Assembly (NCBI GenBank): GCA_963812015.1
Contig: CAWETI010000003.1
Location: 1,728,001-1,792,000 of the forward strand
Source of the DNA: an uncultured delta proteobacterium
Lineage (GTDB): Bacteria > Desulfobacterota > Desulfobaccia > Desulfobaccales > 0-14-0-80-60-11
Reading direction: 5' to 3'
DNA length: 64,000 nt
Shown: positions 2,967-24,509 of the stretch, piece by piece
Numbering within the stretch: position 1 is the first letter of the stretch
How the letters are laid out: each line of letters begins with the position of its first letter
Program-made: the position numbers and the translations under genes
Notes under the pieces: model-generated
What the model was told of the DNA's origin: nothing
Seen by the model: only the letters and a program-made list of their open reading frames with translations
Databases searched by the model: none

Positions 2967-3845
2967 ATGGTTGATCGGAGGAAGAAATTATTCAATCCAC
3001 ATGAAAAAGCCTGCTATATTAATTTAACCAAGATTGGCATTCATTTTGATGTCAACGTACAGAACAAAATGCGTATAGCCGATGTTTTTAATATAAAATC
3101 AAGTGGACTGAGTCCTGAAGAATTTACATATGCGCTAAAAGCACATTTCGATTTTGTAATATATGATAATGAAGATTTGCCATTATTTGGTATAGAATTG
3201 GATGGCTCATTACATGAAAAAGATAACAGTGTAATTAATAATGATATCTTAAAAAACAATATTTGCGAAAGATTCTCTTTTCCATTATTGCGAATAAATG
3301 CGGATTTTGTGACTAAGAAAATCAAAGACCTTTCTCTTTTATCCTGGATTATTGAAGTATGGTTTTTGGGGCAAGCATTTTTAAAACAGCAGGACCAAGG
3401 CTTTATTCCCAAAGATGAAATATTTGACTATAATTTTGTCGTGAAGCCTTTTATGAAAAATGGAATAATTGATGGTGATTTTGCTTATAATCTATCCAGA
3501 ACTGAGGTTGTCTTTATTAATAATTGCAGGAGGGAAGGTGTTATCGCAAGAGTGAATTTTGTGGCATATGAAGATCAATTGGGATTCACTCATGGAATAA
3601 TTGTCGCTTCGATTGACGATAAAAACGGTATTATGTCGAGAGTAAGAGTAAAAACGTTTAATTTTTACCCACCTTCTCCGAGTGATATAGTTGAAGATCT
3701 TGTAATAATTGATATTGCCAACAAAATTAAAAAACATATGGATAATAAAGAAAAATGTATTGATCCAAGGTCTATATACGATTTCATGAATACGATAAAC
3801 TTTAAAAACAAGAATCTAACTTTTTTGAAAGGATTCAGTTTTTAA
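2967..3845 (+). CDS. AT-rich DUF2726-like (PD-(D/E)XK-fold) protein
   Basis: KMRIADV...AHFDFVIYD...PLFGIELDGSLH...DILKNNICERFSFPLLRI resembles DUF2726; GAGGA RBS; far more AT-rich than its flanks. Confidence 0.7.
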   Translation: MVDRRKKLFNPHEKACYINLTKIGIHFDVNVQNKMRIADVFNIKSSGLSPEEFTYALKAHFDFVIYDNEDLPLFGIELDGSLHEKDNSVINNDILKNNICERFSFPLLRINADFVTKKIKDLSLLSWIIEVWFLGQAFLKQQDQGFIPKDEIFDYNFVVKPFMKNGIIDGDFAYNLSRTEVVFINNCRREGVIARVNFVAYEDQLGFTHGIIVASIDDKNGIMSRVRVKTFNFYPPSPSDIVEDLVIIDIANKIKKHMDNKEKCIDPRSIYDFMNTINFKNKNLTFLKGFSF

Positions 3846-3857
3846 TAAAAGATTCAA

Positions 3858-3902
3858 TGATGCGTTCTGCGCCCTAATAATGGCGGGCAGTGGTCGACCT
3901 AC
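3858..3902 (-). repeat. Degenerate REP-like copies, inverted relative to the 2827-2944 array
   Basis: Reverse complement of 3882-3902 is GTAGgtcgaccactgcccgcc, 16/21 identical to the 2854-2874 REP. Confidence 0.55.
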
Positions 3903-3917
3903 ATTGATAAAAACGCC

Positions 3918-4250
3918 ATGGTAGACGAACAAACCATCCAGGATTTATGTAACCGCATCGTCCAGGAATTCCAACCTGACCGCATCATCCTGTTCGGTTC
4001 CTATGCTTACGGCAACCCCACGCCTGATTCTGACGTAGATATTTTGGTAGTTCTGCCCTTTGAGGGCAAGAATTTCTATAAATCACTGGAAATTTTAAAT
4101 CGGGCCAACCCGGCTTTTCCCATCGACCTACTGGCCCGGCGGCCGGATGACACGGCGCGGCGTTATCGCGAGGGCGACCCACTGATTAGAGATGCCCTGG
4201 ATCACGGGAAAGTCTTATATGAACGCCCCGGAGGCCGCCCTATCCCTTGA
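3918..4250 (+). CDS. Minimal nucleotidyltransferase (MNT, antitoxin-type)
   Basis: IILFGSYAYG..TPDSDVDILVV motif and GKVLYE C-terminus. Confidence 0.9.
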   Translation: MVDEQTIQDLCNRIVQEFQPDRIILFGSYAYGNPTPDSDVDILVVLPFEGKNFYKSLEILNRANPAFPIDLLARRPDDTARRYREGDPLIRDALDHGKVLYERPGGRPIP

Positions 4251-4308
4251 AATCGCTACCCGTTTACGGAAAAACCTGCTATCCTTAATTCAGGCAGAAT
4301 TTCGTTAA
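4219..4308 (+). pseudogene. Internally deleted HEPN-toxin-like remnant (29 aa)
   Basis: ATG embedded in the MNT YE codons, the usual position of the HEPN partner; MNAPEAALSLEIATRLRKNLLSLIQAEFR resembles only a HEPN C-terminal helix. Confidence 0.5.
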
Positions 4309-4411
4309 GAGTCAGAGAAGCCTGAGCATTCCCGGCCTCGGCCATACAAAGGGCGTCAGGCATTTTTTCTTTTCTGGACATCCCCGCCGCCTCAAGTAAG
4401 GTGGGACAGTA

Positions 4412-4609
4412 GGCGGCGCAGTCTCCAGCCCGGGCGGGAGCATCAAGCTCTCATGGCGCACCCTGCTGTATCAAGGGTCGGCACGTCTCGACAACCCGGC
4501 GCCAACCGGCGAGCACCCCTCGCCCCACCCCGGGACACCCTCGGGACAGACGGGGGACGACCTTGGTTCACCCGCGCTTCGTGCCGGGATCAGCGCGGGG
4601 CTGCGCGCC
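4412..4609 (+). ncRNA. Structured ncRNA candidate, retron msr/msd-like
   Basis: Terminal inverted repeat ggc(g)gcgcagtctc / ggggctgcgcgcc, several internal hairpins, upstream TGGACA-16-TAAGGT promoter-like sequence, no credible ORF. Confidence 0.5.
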
Positions 4610-22237: not shown

Positions 22238-23113
22238 TCAAGACTGCCAGAGATAAGGCTGGAAGTTTAGGGAAGTTGGGCTCAGGGTGGCCAGGGCCCA
22301 GCCGCAGCCCCGGGGGCCCAGGCCAGGACGCCAGAACGCCGGGGTGCCCTGCACGGCCTGAGGAAGCGGCCAGGCGGTGGCAGGCAGAGATATGTGGTTT
22401 TGGGTTTTGGGTTTTCGGTTTTCAGCAAGACTTATGACCTCTGGCCTATGCATATGCCCGTGCATGCACAGCACCCGGGGAAATTGAGCCAGCAGGCGGA
22501 TCACCTCCGGGGCGTCCCCGGTCCATTGCTGCCAGGGATGAAAGAGGCGGGCCAGGGGGGCGTGGGATAGGATGACCAGGGGTGTGGCCGGGGTGAGTTT
22601 GGCCAGCTCCCGGGCCAGCCACTGGCGTTGGGGCACGCCGACCTCAAAGACCAGGCCCCGGGAAGTGCGACTCAAGGCTGGGTCCAAACCGATAACCTGA
22701 GCCCCCCGATACCCCCGGGAAAACCCCGGCACCCCGAAGCGCCGGACCCAGGCGGAGTCTCCGCCGGGGCCGTGATCCCCTTCCCCCCGCACCGCCCATA
22801 CCGGCCCGGGCAGGTTCGAGAGAATTTCCCGTCCCAAATCCAGGGCGTCGGGGCGGCCCCGATGGGCCAGGTCGCCGGCAAAGAGCACCAGGTCAGGCTG
22901 CGGCTCGAGCGTGCGGATTTCCGCCACCGCCCGGGCCATAGCGGTAGCCTCGGGGCGCTTCTCATTGCCGTCTTTAAGATGGGCGTCGGCCAGCAGCGCC
23001 AGGCGCAGCTCCGGGTCCGCGGCCCGGGCAGGCCAAGGCCAAGCAAGCCTCCCCAAGGCCCACCCTCCGGCCAGCCCCAGCCCCATCTGCTTGATAAATT
23101 CCCGCCGGTCCAT
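22238..23113 (-). CDS. Tat-exported calcineurin-like metallophosphoesterase (CpdA-like)
   Basis: MDRREFIK twin-arginine signal; ADAH, AGDLAH, GEGD, SHAP, HGHMH. Confidence 0.85.
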   Translation of the reverse strand: MDRREFIKQMGLGLAGGWALGRLAWPWPARAADPELRLALLADAHLKDGNEKRPEATAMARAVAEIRTLEPQPDLVLFAGDLAHRGRPDALDLGREILSNLPGPVWAVRGEGDHGPGGDSAWVRRFGVPGFSRGYRGAQVIGLDPALSRTSRGLVFEVGVPQRQWLARELAKLTPATPLVILSHAPLARLFHPWQQWTGDAPEVIRLLAQFPRVLCMHGHMHRPEVISLAENRKPKTQNHISLPATAWPLPQAVQGTPAFWRPGLGPRGCGWALATLSPTSLNFQPYLWQS

Positions 23114-23260
23114 TACCTGCCATTGTAGCAAAATTTCCCTGAAAATCGAGTCTGAAAACCCCGGCAGGGCCGGGCGGCGGCGGGAGCGCCCACAGCCTCC
23201 CGTCTCAGGAGGCGCAGTGCAGTGGAAGCCGGGCCAGGGAAGGTGAGGCAGAGGTTAAAA

Positions 23261-23630
23261 TGAAAAGAAGCCGGGGACCCAGGCGCCTCCTTGCCAGGAG
23301 GGGGATTCACCTGAAGTTCCCCGGCTTCCCGGGACCACGAAACCTTTTTCACTCCCCCTTGAAGGGAAGGCGTCGGCCCACAGGACCGAAACGTTTCGTA
23401 GCCATTCTCACTGCTTCGGCAGCGGAGCTGGCATCTATGGCCGCTTCCGGCAATCAGCGCCCCGCCGGCTTATCTCAAACTCTAGGTCAAAAGCCGACGT
23501 TTGCTCAGGGCCAAAGCAGGTTGCCATGTCATTCAGCCTGGCGGGTGACCCTACCCTTATCGGGTGCGGCCTGTGATGGCCGCCTCCCCGTAACCTTTTT
23601 ACCAGGTGCCCAGACTGGATGTCCTAGCGA
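23261..23630 (-). ncRNA. Large structured ncRNA candidate (unassigned)
   Basis: Promoter-like AT-rich 5' flank, about ten consecutive helices, an 8-bp loop-to-5' pairing and a terminal GC stem followed by UUUU. Confidence 0.55.
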
Positions 23631-23729
23631 TCATATTTATAATTACCCATTTCGAAAAAACAAGGGGGAGGGGGTTTTTTTATAAAAATATTTTAGATAG
23701 GAAACCCAGGCTTTCCTGGAAAAGCAGAT

Positions 23730-23757
23730 CAGGGCGAACACTGAGGTCCGCCCCGAC
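23730..23757 (-). repeat. REP-like palindrome
   Basis: Reverse complement reads GTCG-gggcggac-ctcagt-gttcgccc; same family as the 31756 element. Confidence 0.6.
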
Positions 23758-23811
23758 AAAAACAGGTATTTTCATCAACCGAAACCCGAAAACTGGCAAC
23801 CAAAACCCGTC

Positions 23812-24393
23812 TTACAGCACCCCTTTGGTGGAGGGTACCCCGGTAGCCCTCGGTTCCGGCTGGGTGGCCACGTCCAGGGCCCGCCCCGCCGCCTTGAATA
23901 CCGCCTCCAGGATGTGGTGGGTGTTCTCCCCATAGGGCACGCTGATGTGGAGGGTCATGCCGCCGTGGATACTCACGGCCCGCCAGAACTCCTTGAGTAG
24001 TTGGGGGTCCAGCCCCGCGCCCCCCGGGGGCAGCTCCACCTCCAGGTGGAGGAAGGGCCGGTTGCTCAGGTCCACGGTCACCTGGGCCAGGGCCTCGTCC
24101 ATGGGCACCCGGGCCTCTCCATAACGGCGTACTCCCGGCCGCTGGGCCAGGGCCTCCCGAAAAGCCTGCCCCAGGCAGATGCCGATGTCTTCCACGGTGT
24201 GGTGCTGGTCTACCGCGAGATCCCCCGCGGCCTTGACGGTCAGGTCAAAATACCCGTGGGCCGTGAAGAGGTGGAGCATGTGATCGAGAAACGGGATGCC
24301 GGTGTCGATGGCAGCCCGGCCGGAGCCGTCCAGTTCCAATTCCAGATTGACTTCCGTTTCCCGGGTCCGGCGGTGGATTTTGCTTAAGGGCAT
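23812..24393 (-). CDS. hisB: Imidazoleglycerol-phosphate dehydratase
   Basis: RRTRETE, FLDHML, DQHHTVED, PMDEAL, NTHHILE, VPSTKGVL. Confidence 0.98.
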   Translation of the reverse strand: MPLSKIHRRTRETEVNLELELDGSGRAAIDTGIPFLDHMLHLFTAHGYFDLTVKAAGDLAVDQHHTVEDIGICLGQAFREALAQRPGVRRYGEARVPMDEALAQVTVDLSNRPFLHLEVELPPGGAGLDPQLLKEFWRAVSIHGGMTLHISVPYGENTHHILEAVFKAAGRALDVATQPEPRATGVPSTKGVL

Positions 24394-24509
24394 GACTGGT
24401 GGTCTCCCAAGAGTTTGGACACTACTTCCGCGTTGCGCTCCAAAGGCAGGGTGGGCGGCGCCAACCCGATATTATGGCAAATCCAGATCGGGCAATGATA
24501 AGTACCTCG

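Follow-up and report, generated by a model that had tools for sequence, protein, structure and literature searches.

To our knowledge, large and intricately folded RNAs without an assigned function are rare, and each RNA of this kind that has been studied (RNase P RNA, the group I and group II introns, OLE, and ROOL/GOLLD) does something unusual. The raiA motif, which is ~200 nucleotides (nt) long and occurs in Firmicutes and Actinobacteria, is a stand-alone structured RNA that carries a promoter and a terminator of its own; its usual place is upstream of one gene, which it is nonetheless not thought to regulate in cis. High expression is reported for OLE in PMC12286853 and PMC3413148. In PMC11109978, the GC-IGR survey ranks the smtA motif ('Soda Lake RNA') highly among its candidates and reports it from Thioalkalivibrio only, beside a gene for a class I S-adenosylmethionine (SAM) methyltransferase. 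Here, we describe an RNA gene within a 64,000-nt stretch of DNA from an uncultured delta proteobacterium (positions 1,728,001 to 1,792,000 of contig CAWETI010000003.1, assembly GCA_963812015.1), hereafter the window, in whose coordinates features of this genome are given. The gene, of ~368 nt (~370 nt in round figures), extends from ~23628 to 23260 on the minus strand, as do all of the features below unless otherwise stated, and lies between hisB and a metallophosphoesterase gene whose product carries a twin-arginine translocation (Tat) signal. An earlier reading of the letters alone, the original prediction, had placed a probably pseudoknotted non-coding RNA here; its coordinates, strand and gene context proved correct when we read 23100–23800. 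The RNA family, which is absent from Rfam 15, is new; in kind, it is an addition to the few large orphan RNAs of bacteria.

The four-domain fold and its place among known families

The minus strand has a predicted minimum free energy (MFE) of −176.5 kcal/mol, as compared with −149.2 ± 5.9 kcal/mol for 100 dinucleotide shuffles (z −4.60); it beats all 100 (0/100 as good), in a comparison that the original prediction had named as one that could tell against it. For the plus strand, z is −1.83 and 2/100 shuffles fold equally well. Support for individual helices was judged from three alignments: A2, a MAFFT alignment of 23 full-length sequences, with an RNAalifold consensus plus one pseudoknot (121 pairs); A4, a model-based alignment of domains 1–2 with 62 rows (59 distinct); and A6, a model-based alignment of domains 3–4 with 83 rows (81 distinct). 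Slid controls were produced by moving the 3' partners by 1–3 columns (six slid controls for A4). In A2, 90.8% of the cells are paired, against 34.3–48.8% in the slid controls, and both-side changes are seen in 39 pairs, against 22–30; moreover, 0/500 shuffles reach any of the covariation measures. The equivalent figures are 90.6% against 30.4–45.2% for A4, with both-side changes in 53/72 pairs (25–28 when slid), and 87.0% against 39.9–57.3% for A6, with both-side changes in 38/52 pairs (14–25 when slid). Model-based alignments such as A4 and A6 lean towards the structure of the model; the MAFFT alignment does not, and yet it agrees with them.

From these comparisons, the RNA is predicted to comprise four consecutive domains, D1–D4, that are well supported by covariation. 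D1 (23628–23523) is a multi-helix junction, in which covariation delineates two closing helices and four hairpins: P1 pairs 23628–23626 with 23525–23523, P2 pairs 23617–23611 with 23540–23534, and between them are the P3 hairpin (23607–23605/23595–23593), P4–P5 (GGGG.. and GCGGCC, 23583–23578, with GGCCGC, 23571–23566, and ..CCC) and the L1 hairpin (~23557–23541). Across the D1 helices (1–6 of A4), 84.5–97.1% of the cells are paired and 27/33 pairs show both-side changes. The gcggcc/ggccgc helix of the original prediction is thereby supported, and so is the 8-bp pairing of CAGUCUGG (23617–23610) with CCAGGCUG (23541–23534), although this is a nested helix that closes D1 and not the pseudoknot that had been proposed. 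The AGGUU/AACCU helix is not supported: its core is invariant and shows no covariation, and the GGU forms a small hairpin with a neighbouring ACC.

D2 (23519–23411) is a further junction, closed by a 10-bp long-range helix, CUGCUUUGGC/GCCGAAGCAG (23519–23510/23420–23411), that is also supported by covariation. Within it, a GAGC/GCUC helix (23506–23503/23428–23425) encloses the D2a hairpin (23498–23491/23471–23464) and the bulged D2b hairpin (23461–23430), both of them covarying; 86.1–95.2% of the cells are paired in the D2 helices (8–12 of A4), with both-side changes in 22/34 pairs. The previously proposed ugcu/agca pairing is retained as part of the 10-bp helix, and gucggcuu/aagccggc is supported by covariation. 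A covarying GCCG/CGGC hairpin uses part of the bases that had been assigned to cgcu/agcg. For gccau/auggc together with its local cgcugc/gcagug hairpin, 70.5% of the cells are paired, no excess over shuffles; the covariation supports long-range pairing in its place.

D3 (23403–23333) is a three-way junction, with an outer helix, GGCUACGAAAC (23403–23393)/GUUUCGUGGUC (23343–23333), around two hairpins, and it holds the invariant unpaired sequence GAAAAAGG; its helices (1–4 of A6) are paired in 73.0–89.7% of cells, with both-side changes in 22/27 pairs. Here, the acgaaac/guuucgu helix of the original prediction is borne out together with both of its inner hairpins. D4 (23330–23265), a long bulged hairpin with a U-rich tail to ~23256, has the form of an intrinsic terminator, in which GGGAAGCCGGGG (23330–23319) pairs with CCCCGGCUUCUU (23276–23265) at the base. 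This basal helix (helix 5 of A6) is paired in 94.6% of cells and is near-invariant, several pairs being unchanged in 75–81 of the 81 distinct sequences. Covariation also supports the terminal gaagccgggga/uccccggcuuc stem, and this final element, GAAGCCGGGGA/UCCCCGGCUUC followed by a U run, is present and conserved in all 83 matches to D3–D4. Many unpaired nucleotides are invariant across the homologues, and the 5' and 3' ends of the RNA are not paired with each other in the consensus structure.

D1 and D2 appear to be tied together by a five-pair kissing loop (GGRUY with RAYCC), which the covariation indicates to be a real pseudoknot. The 5' half, L1 (GGGUC; 23551–23547), is the loop of the last D1 hairpin, and the 3' half, L2 (GACCU; 23488–23484), is the loop of D2a. 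The two pair in 95.7% of the cells of A2, with both-side changes in 3/5 pairs, and in 83.9% of those of A4, with both-side changes in 4/5 pairs; because the covariance model contains no pseudoknot, the signal is not an artefact of fitting. The loops switch together between GGGUC/GACCC (20 rows), GGAUC/GAUCC (seven rows), GGGUC/GGCCC (three rows) and the single-row combinations GGGCC/GGCCC, GGGUU/AACCC, GGGUC/GAUCC and GGGUC/GACCU, making seven combinations in all. Among the 62 rows, complementarity extends to 5/5 positions in 34 and to 4/5 in six; in the other 22 it is limited to three positions or fewer. The latter are mostly from one genus, g9 (genera are denoted by our own handles), together with some second copies; in these, the D1 loop is shortened and D2a has an extra stem, and they make up a naturally occurring subtype without the kissing loop. 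Covariation does not separate intramolecular from intermolecular pairing of L1 with L2. For a different pseudoknot that had been suggested, between 5' CUAGG and a loop CCUAG, only 49.6% of the cells are paired, a figure that does not exceed those of the shuffles or the slid controls.

No family in Rfam 15 accounts for this RNA. With gathering scores, Rfam 15 (4227 families) finds three tRNAs only in the whole window; with permissive filters and E ≤ 10, there are five matches in 23050–23850, all at no more than half of their gathering score and unrelated in kind; and in eight homologous loci from four genera, nothing is found at E ≤ 0.01 but a 16S rRNA fragment in a g9 locus, L200. The fragment (L200:1–543, minus strand; 477.9 bits) comes from the 5' region of a 16S rRNA gene and lies ~1.5 kb upstream of the RNA copy. 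Covariance-model matches near the gathering score are absent from the region for OLE, ROOL, GOLLD, HEARO, raiA and T-box in Rfam 15. The original prediction, which had been unable to match the RNA to a riboswitch and had considered it possibly undescribed, thus agrees with the Rfam search, and it was also right in setting aside RNase P RNA and transfer-messenger RNA (tmRNA). RNase P RNA (RF00010) gives no match in 23050–23850 even at E ≤ 10, and is found elsewhere in the genome (C3:1080003–1080365; 327 bits); ARAGORN detects no tmRNA in 22500–24500, and tmRNA genes are found in two other places, at 191 bits each. These two tmRNA matches (C3:1901–2247 and C5:25265–25611) have identical scores and both lie near contig ends, and they may represent a duplicated or mis-binned stretch (the contamination of the assembly is 5.7%). 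The RNA of the signal recognition particle is likewise encoded elsewhere, at 64.7 bits. Full-text searches of the literature, which cannot be made by sequence, gave no description of such an RNA for Deltaproteobacteria or Desulfo- taxa, and neither did term look-ups in PMC11109978 and PMC8632094.

Transcription signals, distribution and neighbouring genes

The putative promoter of the RNA occupies 23635–23663, where a −35-like TTGTTT (23663–23658) is separated by a spacer of 16–17 nt from a −10-like TATAAAT (23641–23635); an A/T-rich tract lies upstream (~23700–23675). A simple sigma-70 scan gave this promoter no score, its −35 element being too weak. Nevertheless, the TTGTTT...TATAAAT flank singled out in the original prediction is kept in 57/57 copies for which upstream DNA was read: common to all are an A/T tract, CCC-TTGnnT and a GATGATTA..TAATAT-like −10 element, at a constant distance from the first helix, and this includes both members of tandem pairs. 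At the other end, the G+C-rich stretch of ~370 nt finishes in the long hairpin and a U run that reaches ~23256. It is from these sequence features that we infer the positions of the transcription start and the 3' end. Upstream, the coding sequence of hisB (24393–23812; Pfam IGPD, E 1.9e-60) is separated from the RNA promoter by two terminator-like hairpins (23757–23728 and 23720–23705). Downstream, a spacer of ~130 nt leads to a calcineurin-like phosphoesterase gene (23113–22238; Pfam Metallophos, E 9.6e-11), whose product opens with M-D-R-R, a twin-arginine start (the likely ATG is 23113–23111).

A BLAST search with 401 nt gave full-length matches, of 70–79% identity, in 16/17 other genomes of the genus and also in further genera of the family. 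For wider searches, covariance models were built of the 5' half (R1; domains 1–2, 222 positions) and the 3' half (R2; domains 3–4, 142 positions). R1 matches 42/69 genomes of the family, f1 (the genome of the window included), in 6/14 genera: g1 16/17, g8 9/9, g9 13/15, g10 1/2, g11 1/4 and g12 1/1. The check for homologues suggested along with the original prediction therefore came out positive by both approaches; the other 27/69 genomes of the family have no R1 match. There are one to three copies per genome, and a single one in the genome of the window. R2 matches abut R1 matches in all of the loci searched with both, and 41/41 copies with downstream DNA read carry domains 3 and 4, including the D4 terminator. 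A shortened copy, L031:1468–1751 (minus strand; genome G027), was also observed: here, the 5' start of D1 joins the D2b hairpin directly, most of D1 and D2a being gone, whereas D3–D4 is intact (R2, 84.2 bits; R1, only 16.8 bits). It adjoins a TylF-type methyltransferase gene, and it may be in decay or may be a natural variant of minimal size.

Beyond the family, the order (equivalent to the whole class; 83 genomes) adds only one marginal R1 match, in G045 (24.5 bits, E 2.4e-4), which we do not count as a homologue; BLAST matches with E > 1e-5 (for example, in G037 and G046) are regarded as noise, since R1 does not reproduce them. In a sample of 151 genomes from the phylum, only the three g1 genomes match, as against 0/146 of the searched genomes from outside the family. 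A pattern scan of metagenome contigs gave 113 loci, and the RNA is present in 31 of the 80 examined, with sediment, wetland and soil among the habitats; an over-degenerate pattern run against named genome records found it in six of the first 100 of 119 loci. In viral contigs, there were three pattern matches, of which 0/3 were confirmed by R1. On these searches, the RNA family is confined to a single family-level clade within the uncultured Thermodesulfobacteriota, relatives of sulfate reducers.

The surroundings of the copies are varied. In g1, a hisB or pirin gene lies upstream and the phosphoesterase gene downstream, the main copy being syntenic across the genus, and the phosphoesterase gene is also downstream of the RNA in g8, g10, g11 and g12. 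In g9, an NDP-forming acyl-CoA synthetase-like gene follows at ~100 nt in 10/14 of the loci scanned. In g8, there are two to three copies per genome, in tandem or ~2.5 kb apart, among chemoreceptor, methyltransferase and P-type ATPase genes. Two g8 loci have three copies each within ~6 kb, at 1456–1828, 4190–4544 and 6708–7066 of L189, and at 1281–1638, 3605–3958 and 6106–6476 of L190. Each of these copies has its own promoter and terminator, and interleaved with them are genes for a dCache/methyl-accepting chemotaxis protein (MCP) chemoreceptor, a spermine-synthase-like methyltransferase, an EF-hand protein and a P-type ATPase; in both loci, one copy faces a convergent gene, that of the spermine-synthase-like methyltransferase. 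Elsewhere, extra copies adjoin genes for DUF3108/YkuD proteins, a cation ATPase, a chemoreceptor (MCP), a methyltransferase, Vsr/Mrr and toxin–antitoxin systems; Mrr, Vsr, toxin–antitoxin and SMODS genes are beside a few copies. SAM-methyltransferase-like genes adjoin copies in L028, L189, L190 and L031; as these are few and related loci, we claim no link to such a partner. In seven g9 loci (L193, L194, L196, L197, L199, L200 and L204), a second conserved hairpin (GGCCCGGATCA..CCGGG-like) lies ~20–60 nt past the terminator of the RNA and before the acyl-CoA synthetase-like gene, to whose leader the hairpin might belong.

The phosphoesterase gene was considered as a partner and rejected, since its presence does not co-vary with that of the RNA across the family. 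A homologue is present in 55/69 genomes and 12/14 genera; g14 has it in 8/8 genomes, as against 0/8 for the RNA, and several RNA-positive g9 genomes are without it. The distance from the RNA to the start of the gene ranges from 42 to 1058 nt over 17 loci, with unrelated inserts. In the variable spacers of L012, L014, L016, L024 and L029, there is a palindromic repeat of the type GCACAGGCTGGAAAGCCTGTGC, which by its sequence looks like an insertion of the repetitive extragenic palindrome (REP) or miniature inverted-repeat transposable element (MITE) kind. The gene also has signals of its own. In the window, an extended −10-like element, TGCTACAAT (23130–23122), precedes the ATG by 8 nt, with no Shine–Dalgarno sequence between them. 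Such an element, TG(C/A)TA(C/A)AAT, is found 7–10 nt before the ATG, again without a Shine–Dalgarno sequence, in 11/17 loci, all from g1; it is kept whatever the distance to the RNA, and the loci that have it are, besides that of the window, L014–L016, L018–L020, L025–L027 and L030. The other 6/17 loci have a Shine–Dalgarno-like GGAG/GAGG instead. The position of the element near the ATG regardless of distance, and the missing Shine–Dalgarno sequence, together suggest that the phosphoesterase mRNA is leaderless or near-leaderless and is transcribed from a separate promoter.

Mode of action and rival explanations

We consider that the locus is probably an independent, stand-alone gene for an RNA that acts in trans. 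The RNA would have a promoter and an intrinsic terminator (D4) to itself, and it would act as a structural RNA, most likely as a part or scaffold of a ribonucleoprotein (RNP) or as a protein-binding regulator, rather than as a riboswitch or attenuator for the gene next to it or as a small RNA that works by base pairing. The independence of the gene is argued for by the promoter and terminator of each copy, by the occurrence of copies in unrelated contexts and by the convergent downstream genes; the 'stand-alone large RNA' that the original prediction had offered as one of two readings gains support from the same promoter and terminator, which are seen in every copy examined, and from the varied contexts. 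That the RNA is structural and acts in trans is suggested by the complex fold, the invariant unpaired bases, the 3' helix of invariant sequence and the strong promoter features when taken together. The transcript would presumably be abundant; the role in binding protein or scaffolding an RNP is put forward with a good deal less assurance than the independence of the gene. More speculatively, and as a possibility to which we lend only limited credence, the RNA could represent a new class of large bacterial RNA, whether as the core of an unknown RNP, as a self-assembling particle held by L1/L2 or as a ribozyme; it might then be of recent origin within one family and made in large amounts, with the terminator stem as a recognition site.

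Public metatranscriptomes offer a weak hint that the RNA is expressed, in line with its strong-looking promoter. Six runs contain 9–12% of the words sampled from 1.2 kb of sequence that includes the RNA, and in 4/4 runs compared, from four studies, contigs cover it: 23156–23525 in X13, 23285–23535 and 23541–23617 in X18, 23171–23417 in X9, and 23311–23483 and 23454–23573 in X12. The gaps in the flanks (there is no cover outside 23310–23596 in X12) and the summed word depths are unusable for relative expression, and loose ends with adapter sequence, near the 5' end (23617, X18) and within the RNA (23525, X13), do not constitute a map of transcript ends. Several points weigh against the stand-alone, trans-acting RNA that we favour. 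These runs exist as contigs, which show neither strand nor ends nor level, and RNA libraries can contain DNA. Among the genes scanned with Pfam, there is no partner protein and no conserved neighbour that would indicate a pathway. In most loci, the RNA and the gene that follows point the same way, and in g9 the distance of ~100 nt to one gene family is constant in 10/14 loci, both of which would also be expected of a cis-acting leader. The terminator stem varies hardly at all in sequence, a feature still to be explained. The kissing loop cannot be essential to every member, since 22/62 sequences are without it. Finally, as the sequences share ancestry, shuffling, which ignores kinship, overstates the significance of the covariation, and the slid controls are the fairer comparison.

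It is unlikely, in our estimation, that the RNA is a cis-acting leader, that is, a riboswitch or a protein- or RNA-binding attenuator with D4 as the expression platform for the next gene, even though every copy ends in an intrinsic terminator, co-orientation with the next gene is usual and no more than ~145 nt separates the RNA from the phosphoesterase ATG in the window; tandem arrangements, moreover, occur among riboswitches, and a leader role may yet apply in g9. Against this, the gap to the phosphoesterase gene varies widely and accommodates unrelated inserts, and the gene has its own TGnTAnAAT element in most of the loci, for which reasons the second reading of the original prediction, a complex attenuator for the downstream phosphoesterase, is disfavoured; that gene also occurs in genera without the RNA, such as g14. 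Furthermore, at least two copies face convergent genes, every tandem copy has its own promoter, and the downstream genes (phosphoesterase, acyl-CoA synthetase, MCP, P-type ATPase, Vsr and DUF3108) have no common theme. The terminator stem is invariant and not free to vary; no alternative (anti-terminator) pairing for D4 is present in the MFE or consensus folds, albeit that no dedicated search was made for one. A length of ~370 nt also exceeds that of known riboswitch aptamers, and PMC11109978 argues likewise for the smtA motif. The chances are slimmer that the RNA replaces, or is an analogue of, an RNA that sequesters RNA polymerase or another protein (6S/Ms1-like or CsrB-like); we rate this a little below the RNA-only reading discussed further on. 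The genome, which is 99.9% complete, has no 6S RNA match (RF00013) at E ≤ 0.001, and the region has none at E ≤ 10, but the model misses 6S RNA in 9/14 control genomes and detects it in only 5/14, such that its silence carries little weight and a divergent 6S RNA may exist. The conserved, strong-looking promoter with its upstream A/T tract, the multiple and sometimes tandem copies, and a size near that of Escherichia coli CsrB would be in keeping with such a role. On the other hand, four tandem domains with a kissing loop do not resemble a single long hairpin with a central bubble, and the ~7 GGA sequences of the RNA in the window are mostly inside conserved helices; no GGA loop motifs of the CsrB/RsmZ type are apparent, and GGA is not conserved in the aligned loops. 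The 27 genomes of the family that lack the RNA speak against this role as well.

The RNA could alternatively be catalytic, or form an RNA-only particle that assembles itself by L1/L2 pairing between molecules. This seems to us doubtful, although the complexity of the fold and the many invariant unpaired nucleotides would suit it, the covarying loops are compatible with intermolecular pairing, and OLE, ROOL and GOLLD are reported in PMC12286853 to form homo-oligomeric assemblies. Rfam 15 reveals no similarity to ribozymes or ornate RNAs, there is no sign of cleavage sites, 22/62 members are without the loop complementarity, and the RNA is smaller than ROOL, GOLLD and OLE and has no link to phages (0/3 viral pattern matches were real). 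Still less probable is that a mobile element or a defence system employs the RNA as its guide or scaffold (omega-RNA, bridge RNA or retron-like). The variable copy number, the dispersal of the copies, and the Mrr, Vsr, toxin–antitoxin and SMODS genes beside a few of them point that way, whereas the synteny of the main copy across a genus, the single copy in the genome of the window and the lack of confirmed viral contigs do not; indeed, no TnpB, IscB, IS110 or reverse-transcriptase gene is beside any of the copies scanned with Pfam. Lastly, the structure might be a by-product of a G+C-rich coding sequence, for the RNA is overlapped on the plus strand by an open frame of 141 amino acids (23260–23685), and several homologues also have long antisense frames. 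The frame has no Pfam match, however; tblastn similarity to it switches frames within most homologues; no antisense frame exceeds 89 open codons, of ~122, in G004, G014a and G034; protein identity is 30–56%, against a DNA identity of 70–79%; and there are indels of 1, 2 and 4 nt inside the RNA region. The frame jumps, the closed frames and the deficit in protein identity mark the region as non-coding, and, with substitutions that are mostly compensatory base-pair changes, we regard the protein-coding reading as refuted for practical purposes.

Comparison with described RNAs

An RNA of ~370 nt with four covarying domains and a kissing loop has thus been missing from a catalogue of 4227 families. 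Its narrow range (6/14 genera), its varying copy number and the subtype that is free of the kissing loop provide comparative material, and further sequences should be easy to gather given its presence in many metagenome contigs (31/80 of the pattern matches examined). It is a good target for structure determination and for the pull-down of partners; because no host has been cultured, its function must be approached in vitro or heterologously. More generally, the finding indicates that the uncultured Thermodesulfobacteriota hold unexplored RNA biology.

With respect to the systems that resemble it most, 6S RNA and Ms1 are abundant stand-alone RNAs of a few hundred nt with strong promoters, and the likeness extends to the stand-alone gene, the size and the strong-looking promoter; the rod-like hairpin with a central bubble by which they are defined is absent here. 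The raiA motif is similarly a stand-alone RNA with its own promoter and terminator, although the raiA model finds no match in this region at E ≤ 10. With OLE, ROOL and GOLLD, as these are described in PMC12286853 and PMC3413148, our RNA shares a restriction to particular lineages, a multi-domain architecture, many conserved nucleotides and long-range tertiary contacts. By the same sources, those RNAs are larger (~580–800 nt), belong to other phyla and are partly tied to prophages or to the partner protein OapA, whereas our RNA matches none of their models, and no partner gene or phage link was found for it. Perhaps the closest parallel is with the smtA motif, for which the comparison is one of descriptions only, as given in PMC11109978. 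The hosts differ, being Gammaproteobacteria in the one case and, in the other, organisms represented by metagenome-assembled genomes of the Thermodesulfobacteriota type. In both cases, the adjoining gene suggests no clear regulatory logic, the RNA is deemed too long for a riboswitch and a function has yet to be assigned. Both RNAs exceed 350 nt, have complex folds for which covariation gives support, and are confined to a narrow lineage.

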